From a virus (Duplodnaviria > Caudoviricetes), in the IMG/VR virus record IMGVR_UViG_3300044724_004722, positions 1 to 32,315 of that record: a DNA stretch of 32,315 nt, one strand, 5' to 3'. Shown here piece by piece: positions 8,899 to 31,562 of the stretch (its first letter is position 1; each line of letters begins with the position of its first letter). A program made the position numbers and the translations under genes. The notes below the pieces were generated by a model. It saw only the letters and a program-made list of their open reading frames with translations, made no database searches and was not told where the DNA came from.

Positions 8899-9084
8899 AT
8901 GAAAGCAATTCTGAACAGATTGAAGGAAGCAAGCTCATGGGCGGGCGTAGCTATTTTAGGCGGTTTATTCGGTCTTGAAGCCGAAGAATCAAACATCATT
9001 TGGCAGGTTGTCACAGCCATCGCCGCCGCCGTTGCTATTTTCCTCCCTGAAAACGGCGAGACGAAGACGGAAACGAACGACTGA
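8899..9084 (+). CDS. Putative holin
   Basis: RLKEASSWAG plus two hydrophobic segments; coupled to the endolysin. Confidence 0.75.
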   Translation: MKAILNRLKEASSWAGVAILGGLFGLEAEESNIIWQVVTAIAAAVAIFLPENGETKTETND

Positions 9085-9473
9085 TGCCAAAATTTGGGAC
9101 ACGTAGCAAAGCCGTGTTGTCCGAATTGCATCCTGATCTTCAAAACGTACTTGCCGAAGCCATCAAGGTGGTAGATTTTATATGCTATGAGGGCCACCGC
9201 TCACATGAGCGACAACAGCAGTTGTTTGATTTGGGCAAGAGCAAGGCGCGACCGGGACAATCGAAGCACAACACGACACCATCAGAGGCCGTTGATCTTT
9301 GGGCGTACCCAATAAACTGGGACGAACTTCAACAACAGACCTATGTTGCTGGAATCATCATAGGCATCGCTCATTCGATGGGCGTAGCAATGCGCTGGGG
9401 CAACGATTGGGATCAAGACGGTGATACCCGCAACAATGGATTCGATGACCTGCCACACTTTGAGTTGATGTAA
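9084..9473 (+). CDS. Endolysin, peptidase M15 (L-Ala-D-Glu type)
   Basis: EGHRS..RQ, SKHN...AVD, WGNDW, DLPHFEL. Confidence 0.92.
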   Translation: MPKFGTRSKAVLSELHPDLQNVLAEAIKVVDFICYEGHRSHERQQQLFDLGKSKARPGQSKHNTTPSEAVDLWAYPINWDELQQQTYVAGIIIGIAHSMGVAMRWGNDWDQDGDTRNNGFDDLPHFELM

Positions 9474-10678: not shown

Positions 10679-11847
10679 TTGAGATCAACAAAACATATTT
10701 GCCCGCTTCAAAGACCTCGTGCCATTACCGTGTTCTCGGTGGCGGTGCGGGGTCTGGCAAATCTGTATTTGTTGCCCAGAACATCCTCCAACGTGCCGCC
10801 GAACAGGGGCGCAGGATCTTGGTGGTGCGCAAGACCGCCCGAACGCTCAGACATTCGACGTTTCAACTGTTCCTCGACATTCTTAGCGCGATGAAGCGCA
10901 CTTCAATGGTGCGGGTTCACAAGTCAGAGATGCGACTCGATTTCCCGTCAGGCGGGGCCATTCTTCACGCTGGCCTTGATGACGCGGAAAAGATCAAGTC
11001 TATCGCCGAGATAGATGACATATGGGTCGAAGAAGCCACCGAGATCAGCAAGCTCGACGCGCAACTGCTCGACCTGCGCCTGCGTGGTAAAGGGTGGCAG
11101 CAGATCACGTTCACCTTCAACCCAACTGTTTTGGCGAAGTGGATTCGCACTTGGTTGGCTGAACGCACCGACACCGACAGCCCTCACGCAGAAGATGTAT
11201 ATGTCCAATTCACCACCGCCGTAGATAATCCGTGGGCGGGTGATGAATATATCAAGCGATTGAAGACGCTACCCAAAGACCTCCGCGAGGTATACTTGAA
11301 AGGCAAATGGGGCGAAGCCCTGCGTGGTCTGGTGTACCCTGATTACACCGTCACCGATACTGCGTGTGAACCTTCGTTCTATGGCCTTGACTTTGGATTT
11401 AACAACGCCACCGCATTGGTGGGCATCCAGAACGCCGACACCGCGATGAGACTGGATGAGATTCTGTATGAATCAGGGCTGACAAATACCGATCTTATTC
11501 GGCGCATGGAAACGCTCATCAAAGACAAGAGCGTCCGCATATACTGCGATGCGGCAGAACCCGCACGAATCGAAGAACTTTCCCGCGCAGGATTCAACGC
11601 GCACCCGGCAGACAAGAGCGTCAACGATGGCATTGATACCGTCAAGCGATACCATCTAGAAATCACACGCACAAGCCAACACCTGCTGAACGAGGTGCGC
11701 GAATACCGATGGGACGAGAACCGCCGCACAGGCGAGCTTCTCGACAAGCCCGTCAAAAACCGGGATCACGCAATGGATGCAATGCGCTACGGCATCCACA
11801 CCGAGTTGGCAGGCGCACATCATACTTTCGGCCTTTGGGGCCAATAA
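10675..11847 (+). CDS. terL: Terminase large subunit (PBSX/Terminase_3-like)
   Basis: Walker A GGAGSGKS, Walker B WVEEATE, TFNP, GLDFG, DHAMDAMRY. Confidence 0.97.
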   Translation: MIEINKTYLPASKTSCHYRVLGGGAGSGKSVFVAQNILQRAAEQGRRILVVRKTARTLRHSTFQLFLDILSAMKRTSMVRVHKSEMRLDFPSGGAILHAGLDDAEKIKSIAEIDDIWVEEATEISKLDAQLLDLRLRGKGWQQITFTFNPTVLAKWIRTWLAERTDTDSPHAEDVYVQFTTAVDNPWAGDEYIKRLKTLPKDLREVYLKGKWGEALRGLVYPDYTVTDTACEPSFYGLDFGFNNATALVGIQNADTAMRLDEILYESGLTNTDLIRRMETLIKDKSVRIYCDAAEPARIEELSRAGFNAHPADKSVNDGIDTVKRYHLEITRTSQHLLNEVREYRWDENRRTGELLDKPVKNRDHAMDAMRYGIHTELAGAHHTFGLWGQ

Positions 11848-11860
11848 ACCTATCAAAAAA

Positions 11861-13279
11861 ATGCTCATTAAAAAGCCTGATATATATTTGCTTGACGGTA
11901 CAACAAAGGGGTTAAGCCTGAAAAGCCCAACCCTCAATGATGTGTTTGGTTATGACACCAATGACCGTAAGGCTGATATGAGTATACAGCAAGCATATAC
12001 CCAGCAGGGTTGGTACAAGCGATGCGTGGATGTGTTAGCCAATAGTCTGGTATCTATGCCGTGGAACGTGTACCGCACGAACTCGGAAGAACCGATTTGG
12101 TCAAGCGGTCAAGAGATCCCCGATGAATTGCAATGGTTTCAGCCCGACGATATTTTGTATCGGGTTGGGGCTTCTCTTGCTTTAACTGGTGCGGCTTTCG
12201 CAATGAAAGAGGGCGAAACCAGAGCAAATGGTCAATTTACATCCGTAACAGGGCTGAAATATATTGCGCCAAAAAACATAAAAGTGGTGACGGAAAAGGG
12301 CAAATATGGGCCAGACAAATACGGTCAATTCCAATTTTTCAAACGCACCGCAAACGGAAAAGACTATTTTATCCCAAAGGAACTGATCGCACATTTTTTT
12401 GCGCCCGATCCGTATATAGAACAGGGGCCGGGTTCATCTTTGGGTTTTTCTGCCCGTACAGGAGCGCAAATCCTTTCCGATCTCGAATCCTTTTCCAGCG
12501 ACCAGTTGCGCAATGGCTTGATCAAACAACACGTATTCGTTGCCGATAAGGATGCTCGACCGCCATCAACCGAACAAATGGACAAGTGGAGGCGGTGGAT
12601 TGTTCGTTTCTTGTCTGGTGCAAAGGGTACAGCTCCCGAAATAATGCAAGGTTTGGACACCAAAGAAATTGGATCTTCTCTTGCCGATTTGCAATCAAAC
12701 GCATTGTCAAAAGATGCAAGGGAAGCAATCACTACGGCGTTTGGGATACCCTTGTCATTGGTAATGTCCAACGCCTCAAACTACGCAACCGCTCAAGCCG
12801 ATCAGATCAACTTTCAGACCATGACCAACATTCCCCGCGCTAAGTTGTGTCAACGGGTTTTGAACAACCAAGTTTTTGCCGATTTGGGTTTGAGAATTGA
12901 AGCAAACCCTGCTCGCTTAGAAGTTTTCCAAGCGGCCGAATTGCAAAAAGCGCAGGCGGTAGCCGCCCTTTCTCCCGGTCGCGTCTTTGTGACCAGAAAG
13001 AAGTTCACGGAAATGATGGGCTGGCAATACAGCCCCGAAGAAGAAGCCGAACTGGAAGCACTAGAGAACCGCCCCGCAAACCCGTCTCCTGTTCGCTCTA
13101 CGCCACGCGAAGTCAAAACCGATGTGGTAGCATGGCGCAGAAAGATCAAGACACATGGGCGCAATGTGGCCTTCTCTCCTGATGCTCTGAATGAACACGA
13201 ATCGTCTGTGATCCGTGAGCGGCTGATGGATGACCTGCCGTTGGATGAAGTCTTTGCCCCGCCATATGTGGGTTTTTAG
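11861..13279 (+). CDS. Portal protein
   Basis: Follows TerL; about 472 aa; ITTAFGIP...SNYATA motif. Confidence 0.93.
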   Translation: MLIKKPDIYLLDGTTKGLSLKSPTLNDVFGYDTNDRKADMSIQQAYTQQGWYKRCVDVLANSLVSMPWNVYRTNSEEPIWSSGQEIPDELQWFQPDDILYRVGASLALTGAAFAMKEGETRANGQFTSVTGLKYIAPKNIKVVTEKGKYGPDKYGQFQFFKRTANGKDYFIPKELIAHFFAPDPYIEQGPGSSLGFSARTGAQILSDLESFSSDQLRNGLIKQHVFVADKDARPPSTEQMDKWRRWIVRFLSGAKGTAPEIMQGLDTKEIGSSLADLQSNALSKDAREAITTAFGIPLSLVMSNASNYATAQADQINFQTMTNIPRAKLCQRVLNNQVFADLGLRIEANPARLEVFQAAELQKAQAVAALSPGRVFVTRKKFTEMMGWQYSPEEEAELEALENRPANPSPVRSTPREVKTDVVAWRRKIKTHGRNVAFSPDALNEHESSVIRERLMDDLPLDEVFAPPYVGF

Positions 13280-13308
13280 AGGGTAGCGTCCACGCCGACC
13301 ACGCACCC
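13270..13308 (+). other. Predicted -1 ribosomal frameshift signal joining portal to MuF
   Basis: G GGT TTT in register directly before TAG; stem GGGT(A)GCGT/ACGC-ACCC 4 nt downstream; -1 frame open into MuF. Confidence 0.7.
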
Positions 13309-13380
13309 GGAAGAAAGGCTTTAAAGCCGCTGGCATCATCAAAAAAAGAGCGCAACGAACACGCGCAGACCATTGAGCGC

Positions 13381-14091
13381 ATGAGGGCCAAGTTGAAGCC
13401 CGATGCCACGAAAACAATCTTGGCGGTGTTAACCCGTCAGGTGACAGCCGCAGCCGATGCAGTTGCTACGGGCGATAGCGTAAGCGAAGCCATCGACGCG
13501 GTAAAAATGAACAAGGCACTTGCAAAGGTTTGGAATCAAGCTATTCCCGTCTTTGCAGGTGCTACGTTCAATGCCATTGAAAAGACGCTGAAAGGCTACG
13601 GAGCCGGTGAAATTGTCGATTGGGCCGAATCCGCTGATGATCTGATTGCAACTATTGGAGCCGAAAAAGTTTTTTTGATAAACAAAGCCACCGAAAATTA
13701 TATTCGCCGACAGATGCGCATAGGCGTTCAGGAAGGATTGGCTGTCAAAGAAGTGGCTGACAAAATCCGCGAGGAATGGGACGAAAAATCATTAAACGGC
13801 TTGACCTACGGGGCTAATCGTGCCGAGCGCATAGCATCAACCGAACTGGTGGGCGCATCAAATTACGGGTCTATCATTGGAGCAGAATCGACGGGGCTGG
13901 ACTTAGAAAAAGTTTGGCTCACGGCTAATGATAACGTTGTTCGAGATTCGCACCGAGAAATGAACGGAAAATTTGCAAATCTGAACGAAGCCTTTTCAAA
14001 CGGTATGCAATACCCCGGCGACCCGAATGGCGGCGCGGCAGAAGTAATACGGTGCAGGTGTACAATCTATCATAGAGTAATCAAAAAATGA
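13381..14091 (+). CDS. MuF/SPP1 gp7 minor head protein (frame open from 13249)
   Basis: RAERIASTE, KVWLTANDNVVRDSH, YPGDP, IRCRC. Confidence 0.93.
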   Translation: MRAKLKPDATKTILAVLTRQVTAAADAVATGDSVSEAIDAVKMNKALAKVWNQAIPVFAGATFNAIEKTLKGYGAGEIVDWAESADDLIATIGAEKVFLINKATENYIRRQMRIGVQEGLAVKEVADKIREEWDEKSLNGLTYGANRAERIASTELVGASNYGSIIGAESTGLDLEKVWLTANDNVVRDSHREMNGKFANLNEAFSNGMQYPGDPNGGAAEVIRCRCTIYHRVIKK

Positions 14092-14351
14092 CATACGATA
14101 AATCTAAACAATACAAAGATGCTTTTTTCTGGTTATTGGGGGTCTTTTGTGCGGTTTCCCTTACCGCCGCATCGTGGTCATTAAACGAAACGGCAAGACT
14201 AACAAGCAGAGTTGACGTAATAGATGACAGCAGATTCACGAAAGAGGATGCTTTGCGCCTTGAAATACAACTCCGCAGGGAAATGGTATCAGCCGTAAAT
14301 GAGATAAAAGATTGTTTAGTGGCGTTGCAGTTTCAGGAGGAATGCCAATGA
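14088..14351 (+). CDS. Single-TM protein with helical tail
   Basis: AFFWLLGVFCAVSLTAASWSL; ATGA overlaps. Confidence 0.7.
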   Translation: MTYDKSKQYKDAFFWLLGVFCAVSLTAASWSLNETARLTSRVDVIDDSRFTKEDALRLEIQLRREMVSAVNEIKDCLVALQFQEECQ

Positions 14352-14530
14352 TATATCGCTACAAATACACCGATAAGAAAGGCGGCGAAATTGAGATTGA
14401 TCACCCAATGAAAGACGATGCGCGAACCGAACACGCGGGCCGACCAGTTCAGCGCATTTTTGAAGGTGGCCGACACATCATTTTTAAGGGTCAGGGTTTC
14501 TATTGCACCGACTACAAAGAGAAAAAATGA
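14348..14530 (+). CDS. FmdB-family-like small protein lacking the CxxC pairs
   Basis: IYRY...MKDD...IFKGQGFYCTDY; AGGAGG RBS. Confidence 0.75.
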   Translation: MIYRYKYTDKKGGEIEIDHPMKDDARTEHAGRPVQRIFEGGRHIIFKGQGFYCTDYKEKK

Positions 14531-14706
14531 GCAACGACAAACCAGCATACGACGCAGAACGCCAACGCTTTCTTGAAGAGGTAATGCACCTTGCGATGAA
14601 GGTTTGGGATGGAGAATTGGCAGAAATTCGCTTGATGAAAAATAGAAATGGAGCGTCCGTATTTTCAACGGAGCGAATGTACCACAGCGTGAAATTGATT
14701 AAATGA
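14527..14706 (+). CDS. Hypothetical protein
   Basis: ATGA coupling; 59 aa. Confidence 0.6.
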   Translation: MSNDKPAYDAERQRFLEEVMHLAMKVWDGELAEIRLMKNRNGASVFSTERMYHSVKLIK

Positions 14707-14730
14707 GAAAATAATCCTTATATTCTAAAG

Positions 14731-14882
14731 TGTAGCGCGTTCCTACCTCTCCGCGCTATAACGATCAGGATGACCGCTTCTGCGTTATTTCTCCGGCGCA
14801 GGAGCGGTTTTATCCTACTCAACATAAAATTTCCCACCAACTGGGGCCAATGTTTCGCTTTTGCGGAGTATGGCCCCTTTTT
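14731..14882 (+). ncRNA. Structured leader: three hairpins, the last terminator-like
   Basis: Stems 14731-14760, 14767-14816, 14843-14877 plus T5; promoter-like TTGATT-18-TATATT at 14695-14724. Confidence 0.5.
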
Positions 14883-14888
14883 GCATTT

Positions 14889-16673
14889 ATGGAAGATCCC
14901 GGAAAAGTCGAACACGACGAAATTCTTGTTGCCATCGGCGGCGAACTGAAGGCCATCGGCGAAAGCCGCATCGGTGGCATGATTGTCAACTTTACGGGGC
15001 CAGAAGACCCCGATCTTGTAGGTGATTATTTCGCCAAAGACACCGAGTTTGGCATCCACGAACAGCTTCCCGTCTACTACGATCACGGTATGAACCCCGC
15101 CTTCGGAAAGAAATCCATTGGCATCGGCACGATCAAGCGCATGGATGCGGGCCTTTGGTTCGAGACTGAACTGGACAAGGCCGATGAGTTTGAGCAACAC
15201 ATCCTTGAGTTGGCCCGAAAAGGAAAACTTCGTTCATCCTCTGGGGCCGTTGGCCATTTAGTGGATCGCATCAAAGACGGAAACACATACAAAATCACAA
15301 GCTGGCCACTCGGCGAATTGTCGCTAACCACCCAGCCAGCGGGAGGCATGGCAACTACTGTGATGCCTCTTAAATCCCTATTTCCAACCGAACCCGATCA
15401 CGAGACGGAACAGGCAGAGGCGGTACAGGCCATGACCGCGCCAACCGTAGAGCAAGGCGAAGTTGAAAACACAGGCGGCGCAGAGCCGCAGACAACAGCC
15501 AAAGCGGTTGAAGTCACTAAACATCCAATCCAAGAGGATAACATCATGGCCGAAGAAGCCAAAAACACATCCGAGGACGCTTTAAAAAACGTCAACGAGA
15601 TGATCGAAAAACTACACGCAAGACTTGACGCGACGGAAGCGAAAGCCGCTGAACCTGTTCAAGAAGTCAAGTCAGTCGTGGAAACAGGAGCCGCACCTAC
15701 AATCATTCGCAATATCGGTAACAGTCAGAAAGCCGCGTTCGGCCATTGGCTACGCACCGGAGACGTAGGCGGTGTAAAACATTTGATTACAGGCGAAAAC
15801 CCTACCGGCCCAATCGTTGAAATCAAAGCGAGCAATGCCGCAGATATGACAGCCGGTGTGGCCGCTGAGGGTGGCAATACCGTCACGGATGATATGTTCG
15901 GGACAATTATTCGCCGCCGTGACGAGGCATCTATTGCATCACAGCTGGGCGTTACTTCATTCACAGGTACAGGCACTACGCTTGATGTGCCGATTGATAA
16001 TGAAGGTGACTCTGAATTTGTTTCAACAGCAGAAGCTGCCCAGTATGATGAGGACTCTCCGGCAATCGGTCAACTCGTACTGACAAAAACCAAGTATTCC
16101 AAGCGGACGTTGATTTCCAACGAACTGCTTGGTGATTCTTCGGCTGATGTGATGAATTACATCATGGATCGTGTTGCGCTGGGTTATGCAAAAACCGAAA
16201 ATGAACTGCTAATAAATGCGGTTAAATCAGGTGGGACGCAGTTCAAAGCCCTTGCAGGTGCAGCAGCAATTGCCGTTGACGAACTCGAAGATGTCGTATA
16301 TAACGATGACAATGCGTTTTATTTGGACGACTCGGGATCTGTTGCATGGGTAATGAAACCATCAACGCTGAACGCTATCGCAAAACTGGACGATGCTAAC
16401 ACGCGCCGCTACGTTACCAACACGCAGGACACACCGGGGCCGCTCGGCTACCGCGCTGTACTGTCAAACAAGTGTGACGCAATCGGAACAGGCAACAAGC
16501 CCGTCCTATTCGGTAACTGGCGTTATGCAGCGAAGTTTGAAGATCCAACACTTCAGTTCCTGCGCGATCCATTCACCCGCGCAGATTATGGTCAGGTCAG
16601 GCTTCTTTGGTACTTCCGAACCGCTTTCGGAATTACACAAAGTGCGGCACTAGGCTACGCTGAAAACGCATAG
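14889..16673 (+). CDS. Prohead protease-major capsid protein fusion (HK97 fold)
   Basis: Protease motifs DLVGD, YYDHG, GLW, SSG, ELSL; capsid motifs GGNTV, WVM, VLFGNW; no intervening stop. Confidence 0.92.
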   Translation: MEDPGKVEHDEILVAIGGELKAIGESRIGGMIVNFTGPEDPDLVGDYFAKDTEFGIHEQLPVYYDHGMNPAFGKKSIGIGTIKRMDAGLWFETELDKADEFEQHILELARKGKLRSSSGAVGHLVDRIKDGNTYKITSWPLGELSLTTQPAGGMATTVMPLKSLFPTEPDHETEQAEAVQAMTAPTVEQGEVENTGGAEPQTTAKAVEVTKHPIQEDNIMAEEAKNTSEDALKNVNEMIEKLHARLDATEAKAAEPVQEVKSVVETGAAPTIIRNIGNSQKAAFGHWLRTGDVGGVKHLITGENPTGPIVEIKASNAADMTAGVAAEGGNTVTDDMFGTIIRRRDEASIASQLGVTSFTGTGTTLDVPIDNEGDSEFVSTAEAAQYDEDSPAIGQLVLTKTKYSKRTLISNELLGDSSADVMNYIMDRVALGYAKTENELLINAVKSGGTQFKALAGAAAIAVDELEDVVYNDDNAFYLDDSGSVAWVMKPSTLNAIAKLDDANTRRYVTNTQDTPGPLGYRAVLSNKCDAIGTGNKPVLFGNWRYAAKFEDPTLQFLRDPFTRADYGQVRLLWYFRTAFGITQSAALGYAENA

Positions 16674-16744: not shown

Positions 16745-17317
16745 ATGACATTGACCGTAACTGTTGCCCCAGCATCTGAGCCGATTTCCACAGCCGAAGC
16801 AAAGGAATGGTTGCGTATTGACACGGCAGATTCAAGCCAAGACAATGTGTTGGCTATCCTGATTACCGGGATTCGTAAGCGCGTGGAAAATGCGCTGAAC
16901 CGCACGTTGATCAACACCACGTATTCGCTCGAATTGAATAGTGATGAGATGATTGGGATGGTAGAACTTCAGCGTGGCCCCGTCTCATCCATTACCAGCC
17001 TCACGACCTATGATGATTCATCTGGATCAGAAGTCAGCACAACGGTCAACGCGACAAATTATCAGTTGATAGGATCTCATTTGCTGGTTGAGCGCAATGA
17101 TGGCTGGGATATAGATCGAACTTATCGGGCTGGAACGGTGGTCTACGTTGCAGGCTACGGCGCATCTTCAACGGATGTGCCATATGATATTCGGATGGCC
17201 CTTCTTGAAATGTTGGCTTTACGCTATGAACGACGCGGTGATGAAGACCGTGACGAAATAAAATCTAGGGAAGACCAGCTTTTTGACGATCTATACCACT
17301 ACAAATTGATCACATGA
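16745..17317 (+). CDS. Head-tail connector (gp6-like)
   Basis: EPISTAEAKEWLRID, YVAGYG, VPYDIRMALL, YERRG. Confidence 0.92.
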   Translation: MTLTVTVAPASEPISTAEAKEWLRIDTADSSQDNVLAILITGIRKRVENALNRTLINTTYSLELNSDEMIGMVELQRGPVSSITSLTTYDDSSGSEVSTTVNATNYQLIGSHLLVERNDGWDIDRTYRAGTVVYVAGYGASSTDVPYDIRMALLEMLALRYERRGDEDRDEIKSREDQLFDDLYHYKLIT

Positions 17318-17640
17318 TTGGGAGCCGCCGACATCTTATTACAATACAGAAGAATACGCCCACGAGAGTAAAAGGCGTAAGGGCAGATGTGTGGAGTACC
17401 CTCGCCAGCGTTTACGCTGAAATCAAAACCCTCGGCGGTGGTGAGCGACAGGCGGCCGACCAACGCGAGATGGTGGCAACGCATGAGATTACGATGCGCT
17501 ATCGTGCCAGCGCAGCAGACATTACCCGCAGCCGATACCGCGTAACATTCAGCGGCAAGACCTTCGATGTGCGTGGGGTTGTGCATCCAGATCCTCGCAA
17601 GGAATTAACGATTATGCGCGTTCAGGAGGTGGTCACATGA
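17314..17640 (+). CDS. Head-closure/stopper protein (SPP1 gp16-like), copy 1
   Basis: GSRRHLITIQ...W...GGE...THEITMRY...FDV. Confidence 0.88.
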   Translation: MIGSRRHLITIQKNTPTRVKGVRADVWSTLASVYAEIKTLGGGERQAADQREMVATHEITMRYRASAADITRSRYRVTFSGKTFDVRGVVHPDPRKELTIMRVQEVVT

Positions 17641-17972
17641 TTGATAAGCTATGGAGACGCGCACAGGTGCAGGAGCGTAGCGTAACGCGCGCTCAAGGCG
17701 TTAAAACCTCAGATGGGTGGTCTACTATCGACACGGTGTACTGCTCGTTAAAACCGCTGTCAGCGCGTGAATTGAGAATTGCCGATCAGAACGGTGAAAT
17801 TGTCGACCATGAAATATGGATGCGCTACCGCAATGATTTGGGAGACAGCAACACCGAACTGCTTCCCCGTCACCAGTTAATCATTGATGAACGCACTTTT
17901 GACGTTCGGAGCGTAGAGAACGTAGACTTCCGCGACGAATGGACACGCCTAAAAGTTGAGGAACGCACATGA
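17637..17972 (+). CDS. Head-closure/stopper protein, copy 2
   Basis: WSTI...PLSARE...HEIWMRY...TFDVRSV. Confidence 0.85.
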   Translation: MIDKLWRRAQVQERSVTRAQGVKTSDGWSTIDTVYCSLKPLSARELRIADQNGEIVDHEIWMRYRNDLGDSNTELLPRHQLIIDERTFDVRSVENVDFRDEWTRLKVEERT

Positions 17973-19564: not shown

Positions 19565-19921
19565 ATGAAAAACAATCATCCTGAAACACTCGAAATCGAA
19601 TTAAACGGTGAAACCAAAACCATCAAGCTCGGCCCCGCCGCGTTTAGATTGGCAGAGATACGCCACAAGATTACTTTTTCAATGGCCGATTTATCGAATC
19701 CGACACTCGCAACGCTGGCACAGTTGGCGTATGTGGGATGCCTACCCGATGATCCAAAATTGAAGGAAACAGATTTTGTTGTTTCAATGGCAAATTCCGA
19801 CGAGGGAAAAATCATTTCCTCTGTTGGGGTCGCACTACAACGCATGACGGATGGTCTGACCTTCGGCGAAGACCAGAACGCGGGTGGTGATGATGAGGGA
19901 AACGACAAGCCGGGGAAGTGA
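19565..19921 (+). CDS. Tail assembly chaperone (gpG-like)
   Basis: Between tube and tape measure genes; slippery G GGA AAC at 19897-19903. Confidence 0.85.
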   Translation: MKNNHPETLEIELNGETKTIKLGPAAFRLAEIRHKITFSMADLSNPTLATLAQLAYVGCLPDDPKLKETDFVVSMANSDEGKIISSVGVALQRMTDGLTFGEDQNAGGDDEGNDKPGK

Positions 19922-31151: not shown

Positions 31152-31562
31152 TCAGTCCTCCCATCTACGTGAAAAGCCCCAAACGTCACAGTGTGTAAAC
31201 GTCTTGTATCTGCCTACACCCCCAATCTCTTCAGATTCAAGCCAAGAGGCAACCTCCGACGGCTCCACTCCCTTGACTACGATGTCGGCAGCCATTCCCA
31301 GAACGTGCTTACTCTTCTTGGCACCGCCAATAGACTTGTTGTACTCCTTCGTGCGGTACGCCGAGTTTATTGTAACGGGTGCGTCAAAATGATTGCGCAC
31401 TTGCTGTAAAAGGGCTACCAGCGAGGGGTGAACCTTCACGATGTCTGACCCATCGGAGCAAGCAAACTCGCCCAGTGCGAAGTTATCACTTAGAAAGGTT
31501 TGTGCTCCATATAGCTTCAAGCTAAACCACTCCACCTCATTCTCTTCCTGATTAGAAAACAT
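31152..31562 (-). CDS. Peptidase M15A (YcbK-like), second endolysin
   Basis: EFAC, SAYR...N...GGAKKSKH...AADI, FTHCDV. Confidence 0.92.
   Translation of the reverse strand: MFSNQEENEVEWFSLKLYGAQTFLSDNFALGEFACSDGSDIVKVHPSLVALLQQVRNHFDAPVTINSAYRTKEYNKSIGGAKKSKHVLGMAADIVVKGVEPSEVASWLESEEIGGVGRYKTFTHCDVWGFSRRWED

Follow-up and report, generated by a model that had tools for sequence, protein, structure and literature searches.

In phage SPP1, the MuF gene (gp7) directly follows the portal gene (gp6), and the portal, to which gp7 binds, takes one or two copies of it into the prohead (1–2 copies per capsid); the two separate products are linked non-covalently (PMC6316719, PMC5576092). The MuF family is found in 35% of surveyed tailed phages (PMC5576092), and it is also used for carrying toxins. 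In Microbacterium phages of the clusters EA3, EA5, EA8, and EB, in-frame portal–MuF fusions are described as single ORFs with one product (PMC7302621). Where phages are known to use frameshifts, these fix the proportions of tail chaperones and of capsid or tail-tube extensions: In the tail chaperone pair G/GT (lambda; SPP1 17.5/17.5*), a heptamer near the end of a structural gene and an open −1 frame yield two products with a common N-terminus, the shift being −1, −2, or +1 depending on the phage, and in T7/T3 gene 10, Lactobacillus A2, Listeria A118/A500/PSA, and SPP1 17.1* some copies of a virion protein receive a C-terminal extension by a shift whose direction again varies among the phages; Ig-like or other accessory domains are thereby added to many-copy shell or tube proteins (PMC5009743, PMC6316719). 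At the level of individual motifs, G_GU in T7 gene 10 is a documented shift site with bacterial ribosomes, G_GAU_UUU adjoining a stop codon is a documented shift site in an umbravirus, and UUU_Ynn is named as +1-prone in bacteria (PMC5009743). A frameshift between portal and MuF was not found in a literature search of the main text of articles, and genome-wide frameshift surveys might have such sites in their supplements: The passages covered in PMC7911831, PMC12846349, PMC2628397, PMC10299305, and PMC8601537 hold no report of it, the word "frameshift" is absent from PMC5576092, and "portal" is absent from the first 300,000 of the 449,034 characters of PMC5009743. This agrees with the preliminary description of the locus, which knew of no characterized case.

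We report here that the portal gene of a marine and estuarine tailed phage very probably ends in a programmed −1 ribosomal frameshift site that would give a portal–MuF fusion, a reading that is based on comparative sequence analysis and was already put forward in the preliminary description; none of the tests run that could have spoken against it did so. It would be a familiar type of mechanism acting on a gene where our search turned up no published example. As at the G/GT site, the heptamer of the putative site stands shortly before a structural gene ends and leads into an open −1 frame, but the site lies in the portal/head module instead of between the major tail and tape measure genes, it abuts the stop codon and is followed by a conserved hairpin, and the extension is an entire MuF protein. 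Its heptamer starts with G_GU as in T7 gene 10, whereas, in contrast to the capsid and tail-tube extensions, two normally separate head genes would be joined, on the portal ring. The domain order of the predicted shifted product is that of the in-frame portal–MuF fusions (the Microbacterium clusters as well as phrog_2662, phrog_859, and the protein P0016), but the zero frame stops here; and while the gene order is that of SPP1, the link between portal and MuF would be covalent and set by recoding.

The window, by which we mean the whole 32.3-kb stretch of DNA analyzed, is a tailed-phage record that occurs in estuary and marine metagenomes. Its late genes are arranged in the order terminase, portal (11861–13279, plus strand), MuF (to 14091), protease–capsid, connectors, tail tube, tail chaperones, and tape measure. 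The portal is of the HK97 type (Pfam PF04860, E 2.7e-23; phrog_12 and phrog_2662) with a zero-frame product of 472 aa, its homologues measuring 448–496 aa; an alternative upstream ATG at 11777 would give 500 aa, and homologue alignments begin at 11861. Counted from its first ATG, the MuF ORF occupies 13381–14091 on the plus strand (PF04233, E 2.1e-12; phrog_2468, E 1.1e-38), and with 48.2 bits against a PF04233 cut-off of 29.6 and a position downstream of the portal it belongs to the MuF1/SPP1 gp7 family. The Pfam domain lies at about 13702–14067 and the ORF ends about 7 residues beyond it, without the C-terminal toxin extension of polymorphic MuF toxins. Foldseek returned no PDB match at E ≤ 0.001 for the MuF model, and the predicted portal model is poor (pLDDT 60.6). 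The search for a close cultured relative found none, with a best portal match of 22.7%, MuF-only matches, and three weak records for the fusion as query. With respect to the host, GTDB yielded distant bins only and no match to the junction pattern, and the label Pontimonas MAG on one cluster member does not count as host evidence. Elsewhere in the window we observed a tandem pair of head-closure genes at 17314–17972 (Hc1, phrog_25) and two peptidase-type endolysin-like genes on opposite strands, at 9084–9473, upstream of the terminase genes, and at 31152–31562 (minus strand).

The portal gene ends with GTG GGT TTT TAG. As had been claimed, this places a slippery heptamer, G GGT TTT (13270–13276, plus strand), in the X XXY YYZ register of the zero frame at the final two sense codons, directly before the stop codon TAG (13277–13279, plus strand), which adjoins the heptamer and forms part of a 4-nt spacer. 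The −1 frame is closed upstream by a TGA (13246–13248, plus strand), with no ATG, GTG, or TTG between this codon and the heptamer. From the heptamer onward it reads GF-LEGSVHADHAPGRKALKPLASSKKERNEHAQTIER-M into the ATG at 13381 and continues to 14091, which confirms the 35 open codons leading into MuF and the product lengths of 472 aa in the zero frame and 743 aa for the −1 fusion. At the predicted junction, VGF-LEG, the fusion would be recognizable by a junction peptide ending in PPYVGFLEGSVHADHAPGR, as opposed to the free portal C-terminus ending in PPYVGF. Of the 7625 codon positions in the 35 plus-strand ORFs of the window, 61 (0.8%) carry an in-register slippery heptamer, and no ORF except the portal has one at its very end. 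The site is separate from the tail chaperone −1 site of the same phage: There, a lambda-type G GGA AAC (19897–19903) lies within the ORF 19565–19921, the −1 frame opens exactly at this heptamer and runs to 20250, and the corresponding position of the relative L248 is occupied by G GGA AAG. The presence of this second site in the genome speaks in favor of recoding at the portal end. An internal Shine–Dalgarno stimulator 5′ of the heptamer, an optional feature of dnaX- and IS-type sites, is absent from the window, and the SD-like matches of some relatives lie mostly about 17–22 nt upstream and are not common to the clade; a conserved 5′ stimulator of this kind was not found. Two arguments of the preliminary description are weak. 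The lack of a good SD sequence before the MuF ATG carries no information, since the start of the portal and several others match the anti-SD just as poorly, and the 101-nt gap between portal stop and MuF ATG, held to be anomalous, is accompanied by gaps of 65, 71, 106, 215, and 319 nt in the same gene run. Among the late genes, many starts have no SD sequence and are preceded by A-rich leaders; this may point to SD-independent initiation in the host.

The interruption of the portal–MuF reading frame is no assembly error. No base is inserted or missing over 13000–13600 in the assembled contigs of four out of four sequencing runs from four studies, one of which (X6) may be the source sample of the window, and heptamer and stop codon are identical in 4/4 IMG/VR contigs; the indel error in the T-run that had been named as a possible flaw was therefore not encountered. 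The stretch is also present in contigs from RNA libraries, which are no proof of transcription. A single-ORF fusion is ruled out for the window, as the TAG at 13277 is present in it and in all near-identical contigs. Fifteen protein homologues of 33–59% identity stop at the same place (11 with GF, two with DF, and two with SF), and a sixteenth, P0016, is a 715-aa in-frame portal–MuF fusion. For P0013 and P0014, the homologues ending in SF, a search for the underlying DNA found none; both may lack the heptamer. These data bear on the idea that an assembly error or a recent mutation broke a normal portal–MuF fusion gene, for which one may quote the susceptibility of homopolymers to indels and the frequency of in-frame fusions in this family. 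Yet no indel was found in the four runs or the four IMG/VR contigs, 15 lineages are all interrupted at the identical codon, and even protein homologues with as little as 33% identity terminate there. Judged from these comparisons, this idea is already refuted by conservation, and we leave it a practically negligible probability.

To assess conservation at the DNA level, we gathered 168 records with the core of the portal, which does not include the junction, as the search seed; further searches and the window itself contributed as well. The group of the window comprises 74 records, 67 assigned by a C-terminal protein motif and seven added for ending in Phe. They are redundant, including the window, contigs fetched twice, and the same contig in two collections, and, when compared over their last 200 aa, collapse into 15 clusters at an identity of 90% and into 12 at 75%; as records and sequence pairs are related, counts do not represent independent events. 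A slippery motif stands directly before the stop codon in 74/74 records (GGGTTTT in 53, GGATTTT in 20, GGATTTC in one), and the −1 frame is open in 74/74, which bears out the expectation that homologous junctions would keep heptamer and frame relationship. The two main variants have counterparts among the documented shift sites, GGGTTTT in the G_GU start of the T7 gene 10 site and GGATTTT in the G_GAU_UUU of the umbravirus. The third bases of the last three portal codons are G in 12/12, T in 12/12, and T in 11/12 lineages: The third-last amino acid is variable, yet its codon keeps the G in all 12, and the lone third-base change, G GAT TTC, still satisfies the slippery motif. By comparison, no fixed third base occurs in the near-invariant columns of these portals (0 of 29 four-fold, 0 of 15 two-fold), and over all columns there is one in 259. 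In a quick IQ-TREE phylogeny of 62 of the 162 usable portal cores (no bootstrap, midpoint root, L119 left out), the heptamer rows form one branch that contains nothing else (13/13 rows, SH-aLRT 100), and three lineages of the seven records added for their Phe also fall inside it. The search for natural in-frame fusions was likewise positive: They exist in the wider family (37 of the 168 records, phrog_2662, P0016), so that the fusion is a natural architecture, and phrog_2662, itself a fusion family, matches both the portal and the −1 frame.

Downstream of the heptamer we found a predicted 3′ stimulatory hairpin (13281–13308, plus strand) that is weak in the window and stronger in most relatives. 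The stem previously described 4 nt past the heptamer is indeed there (4+4 bp with one bulge and an 11-nt loop), but its stability in the window alone does not exceed that of shuffled sequences (z 0.05; z 0.01 in a second analysis). Its conservation, on the other hand, could be verified across the clade. The predicted stem starts 3–5 nt past the heptamer in 15/15 lineages and reaches z ≤ −1.7 in 12 of them, the exceptions being the window, L017, and L031 (z −0.37 in the latter), and averaged over 12 lineages the MFE is lowest at the stop codon, with −14.7 kcal/mol, whereas 60 other offsets give values of −5.4 to −11.7 kcal/mol. In 18 aligned junctions, eight of nine pairs change on both sides; both-side-changed cells number 27 versus 13.7 after shuffling (0/500), with lower values in slid controls, while the number of pairs with both-side change is non-significant against shuffles (96/500), and because the structure was drawn from the same 18 sequences the test favors it. 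Synonymous change is suppressed over the hairpin codons, with 51 changes in 11 codons versus 746 in 20 (148 non-independent pairs). A candidate 3-bp pseudoknot (13294–13319, plus strand), in which the loop GCC at 13294–13296 would pair with GGC at 13317–13319, can form in 87% of cells of the 18 sequences and is speculative because its pairs never covary. Rfam gave a single match over 12800–14900, with E 0.085 and far below the gathering score. Taken by sequence, the clade thus carries a 3′ structure of the kind predicted to stimulate frameshifting, which is weak in the window.

The same region could be read in terms of transcription. If the T-run were part of an intrinsic terminator or an attenuator where the portal gene ends, the structure would be no recoding signal, and a terminator-like 5-bp stem plus T-run is in fact called at 13258–13272, with Pro–Pro codons able to pair weakly with GG in many relatives. 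However, the same rule is satisfied in only 2/15 lineages, the conserved hairpin is located 3′ of the T-run and hence on the wrong side, transcripts would lack the stop codon and would not reach the capsid gene, and the coding constraint on the −1 frame would be left unexplained, which makes a terminator extremely improbable. Alternatively, RNA polymerase could slip on the T-run and add a U, producing a fusion mRNA. The site is T-rich, but its run consists of just 5 T in 14/15 lineages and of 3 T in L119, and polymerase slippage usually needs longer runs; moreover, the fixed upstream GG and a hairpin at a fixed 4–5 nt suit tRNA re-pairing. Polymerase slippage is more plausible at the runs of 7–8 T found in relatives with an inverse layout (see below), although one of these, L052, has C CCT TTC, which is not a homopolymer. 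For the window we consider it very improbable.

Ribosomal frameshifting would further account for the sequence leading up to the annotated MuF start, 13276–13380 (plus strand), which would encode a 35-codon linker and the N-terminal helix of MuF in the −1 frame and contains a conserved K-A motif (13315–13320). MuF is matched by HMM in this frame in 70 of the 74 clade records, and the contigs of the other four end within 33–338 nt. Within the first 31 codons past the portal stop, stop codons occur in 0/15 lineages in the −1 frame, in 10/15 in the zero frame, and in 12/15 in the +1 frame, and at linker codons 11–30 the changes at −1-frame codon positions 1, 2, and 3 amount to 272, 196, and 961 (148 related, non-independent pairs). 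Among ten aligned proteins, K16 is invariant, and a K-A pair, or K-G or K-Y, follows downstream of the hairpin. The profiles phrog_2662 and phrog_2468 match the −1 frame from residues 22 and 25, respectively, the annotated Met being residue 38, and an AlphaFold model of this frame (pLDDT 85.5) contains a helix of residues 25–67 that starts 13 residues before this Met, which would consequently lie inside the helix. These features weigh on the possibility that MuF is an independent gene, started from the ATG at 13381 or by re-initiation near the portal stop, and that the terminal GF is kept for protein reasons. In its favor, the ATG is in frame, SD-less starts are common in this phage, other lineages often encode MuF separately, with initiation close to the stop of the preceding gene, and a Met occurs at +95 to +104 nt in 8/15 lineages; together with a TTG that overlaps the stop in L027, the latter makes some independent initiation of MuF possible. 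Yet protein conservation is unable to fix synonymous third bases, the stretch of 35 codons ahead of the ATG shows coding constraint in the −1 frame and matches fusion-family profiles, and the ATG falls within the predicted helix. Furthermore, no start codon is available for 254 nt in L093 and for 161 nt in L042 and L043, in L112 a stop codon closes the −1 frame right before the heptamer and a start codon is lacking over 119 nt, and the triplet overlapping the portal stop is TTA in 13/15 lineages. An independent MuF gene is, in our judgment, very improbable as an explanation of the locus.

On the basis of the preferred reading, a programmed −1 frameshift, we propose the following mechanism. Ribosomes on G GGU UUU would be slowed by the adjoining stop codon and by the 3′ hairpin at the mRNA entry. 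An occasional slip by one base would then yield the 743-aa portal–MuF protein beside the 472-aa portal, probably by tandem slippage in which tRNA-Gly moves from GGU to GGG and tRNA-Phe from UUU to UUU, resulting in the junction VGF-LEG. At a low rate, MuF would enter the prohead attached to about one or two of the portal subunits in the ring, a number resembling the 1–2 gp7 copies per SPP1 capsid: As the ring consists of 12 subunits, we infer that a shift rate of about 10% would suffice for approximately one fused subunit per ring. The preliminary description had the fused subunits as a minority that fixes the stoichiometry, but they need not be a minority. Prohead proteases of this type cleave after Lys and, speculatively, the protease might cut the linker at K-A and thereby free MuF. 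In the window, the prohead protease (PF04586) is fused to the major capsid protein (14850–16673), and K-A and K-S pairs are seen in the protease–capsid linker, as in the portal–MuF linker. If the proposed frameshift is true, a recoded fusion explains how a symmetric portal ring loads only 1–2 MuF, mixed portal rings are to be expected, and the MuF genes of the clade are annotated with false internal starts.

Outside the clade, two other layouts of the junction came to light. In layout B, the portal terminates in Y-P-stop at 16 distinct junctions, almost always as W-x-x-Y-P. The downstream frame is +1 in 11 of these, and all 11 have C TTT Y 5–23 codons upstream, within the part of the sequence that can be read in the +1 frame without a stop. 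With the near-copies L164 and L166 counted once, the 11 junctions represent ten lineages of a candidate +1 class (L054, L057, L059, L086, L125, L126, L135, L152, L162, and L164/L166), nine of which have a MuF match, the contig of L125 ending early. Several of these loci also possess an ATG or GTG 7–25 nt past the stop, and the joint probability of the layout (about 1e-14) is post hoc because the set was split by eye. The other five Y-P-stop junctions have their own start codon at the stop and no C TTT Y. A shift at the Pro-stop itself was considered for this group and rejected, because CCA, CCG, and CCT cannot re-pair in the +1 frame and these five loci start at the stop.

In layout C, the inverse case, 22 of the 37 in-frame fusion records carry T TTT TTT (21) or C CCT TTC (one) at the matching place, at about codons 450–500 of the fusion ORF, and their −1 frame ends in Y-P-stop. 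These records (L048, L049, L052, L062–L065, L067, L070, L071, L073–L079, L082, L085, L154, L159, and L167) amount to about three lineages; the signal may be the relic of a fixed indel, and polymerase slippage on runs of 7–8 T is plausible here. A hidden Y-P-stop in the +1 frame occurs in none of the fusion records, and 15/37 are without such a signal. Layout-B and fusion rows are interleaved on the portal tree. In a MuF-seeded sample of 80 loci, read by eye, lineages outside the clade have long fusion-like ORFs or separate genes, the latter mostly with a start codon near the upstream stop.

Judging by their sequence patterns, distant relatives thus seem to obtain this pair of products in a different way, through a +1 slip or a truncating −1 slip. 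We regard it as somewhat better than an even bet that a single portal family has wired a recoding switch in three ways, that selection acts on the ratio of bare to MuF-bearing portal and not on the mechanism, and that many "fusion" genes make two proteins: In the clade of the window, a −1 slip would extend the portal; in layout B, a +1 slip at C UUU Y would bypass the W-x-x-Y-P stop; and in layout C, the fusion would be read in frame and a −1 slip at U UUU UUU or C CCU UUC would exit to the Y-P stop. Should layouts B and C hold true, bare portal would also be made from some of the fusions annotated as single ORFs.

Several minor observations concern the same proteins. A conserved 60-aa C-terminal portal module (D-x-x-x-W-R-R-K … I-R-E-R-L; 13097–13276 in the window) has no Pfam or PHROG match, and a module related to it sits before the junction in all portal–MuF layouts. 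At the portal ends of L087 (a Caldilinea bin), L045, and L046, the reading frame breaks, with +1 as the frame on the MuF side, and the Y-P motif is absent; L087, a sister of intact fusions, may contain an assembly indel. Finally, long C-terminal extensions are found in L066, whose fusion ORF measures 1209 aa, and in L057 and L152, which have long MuF ORFs.
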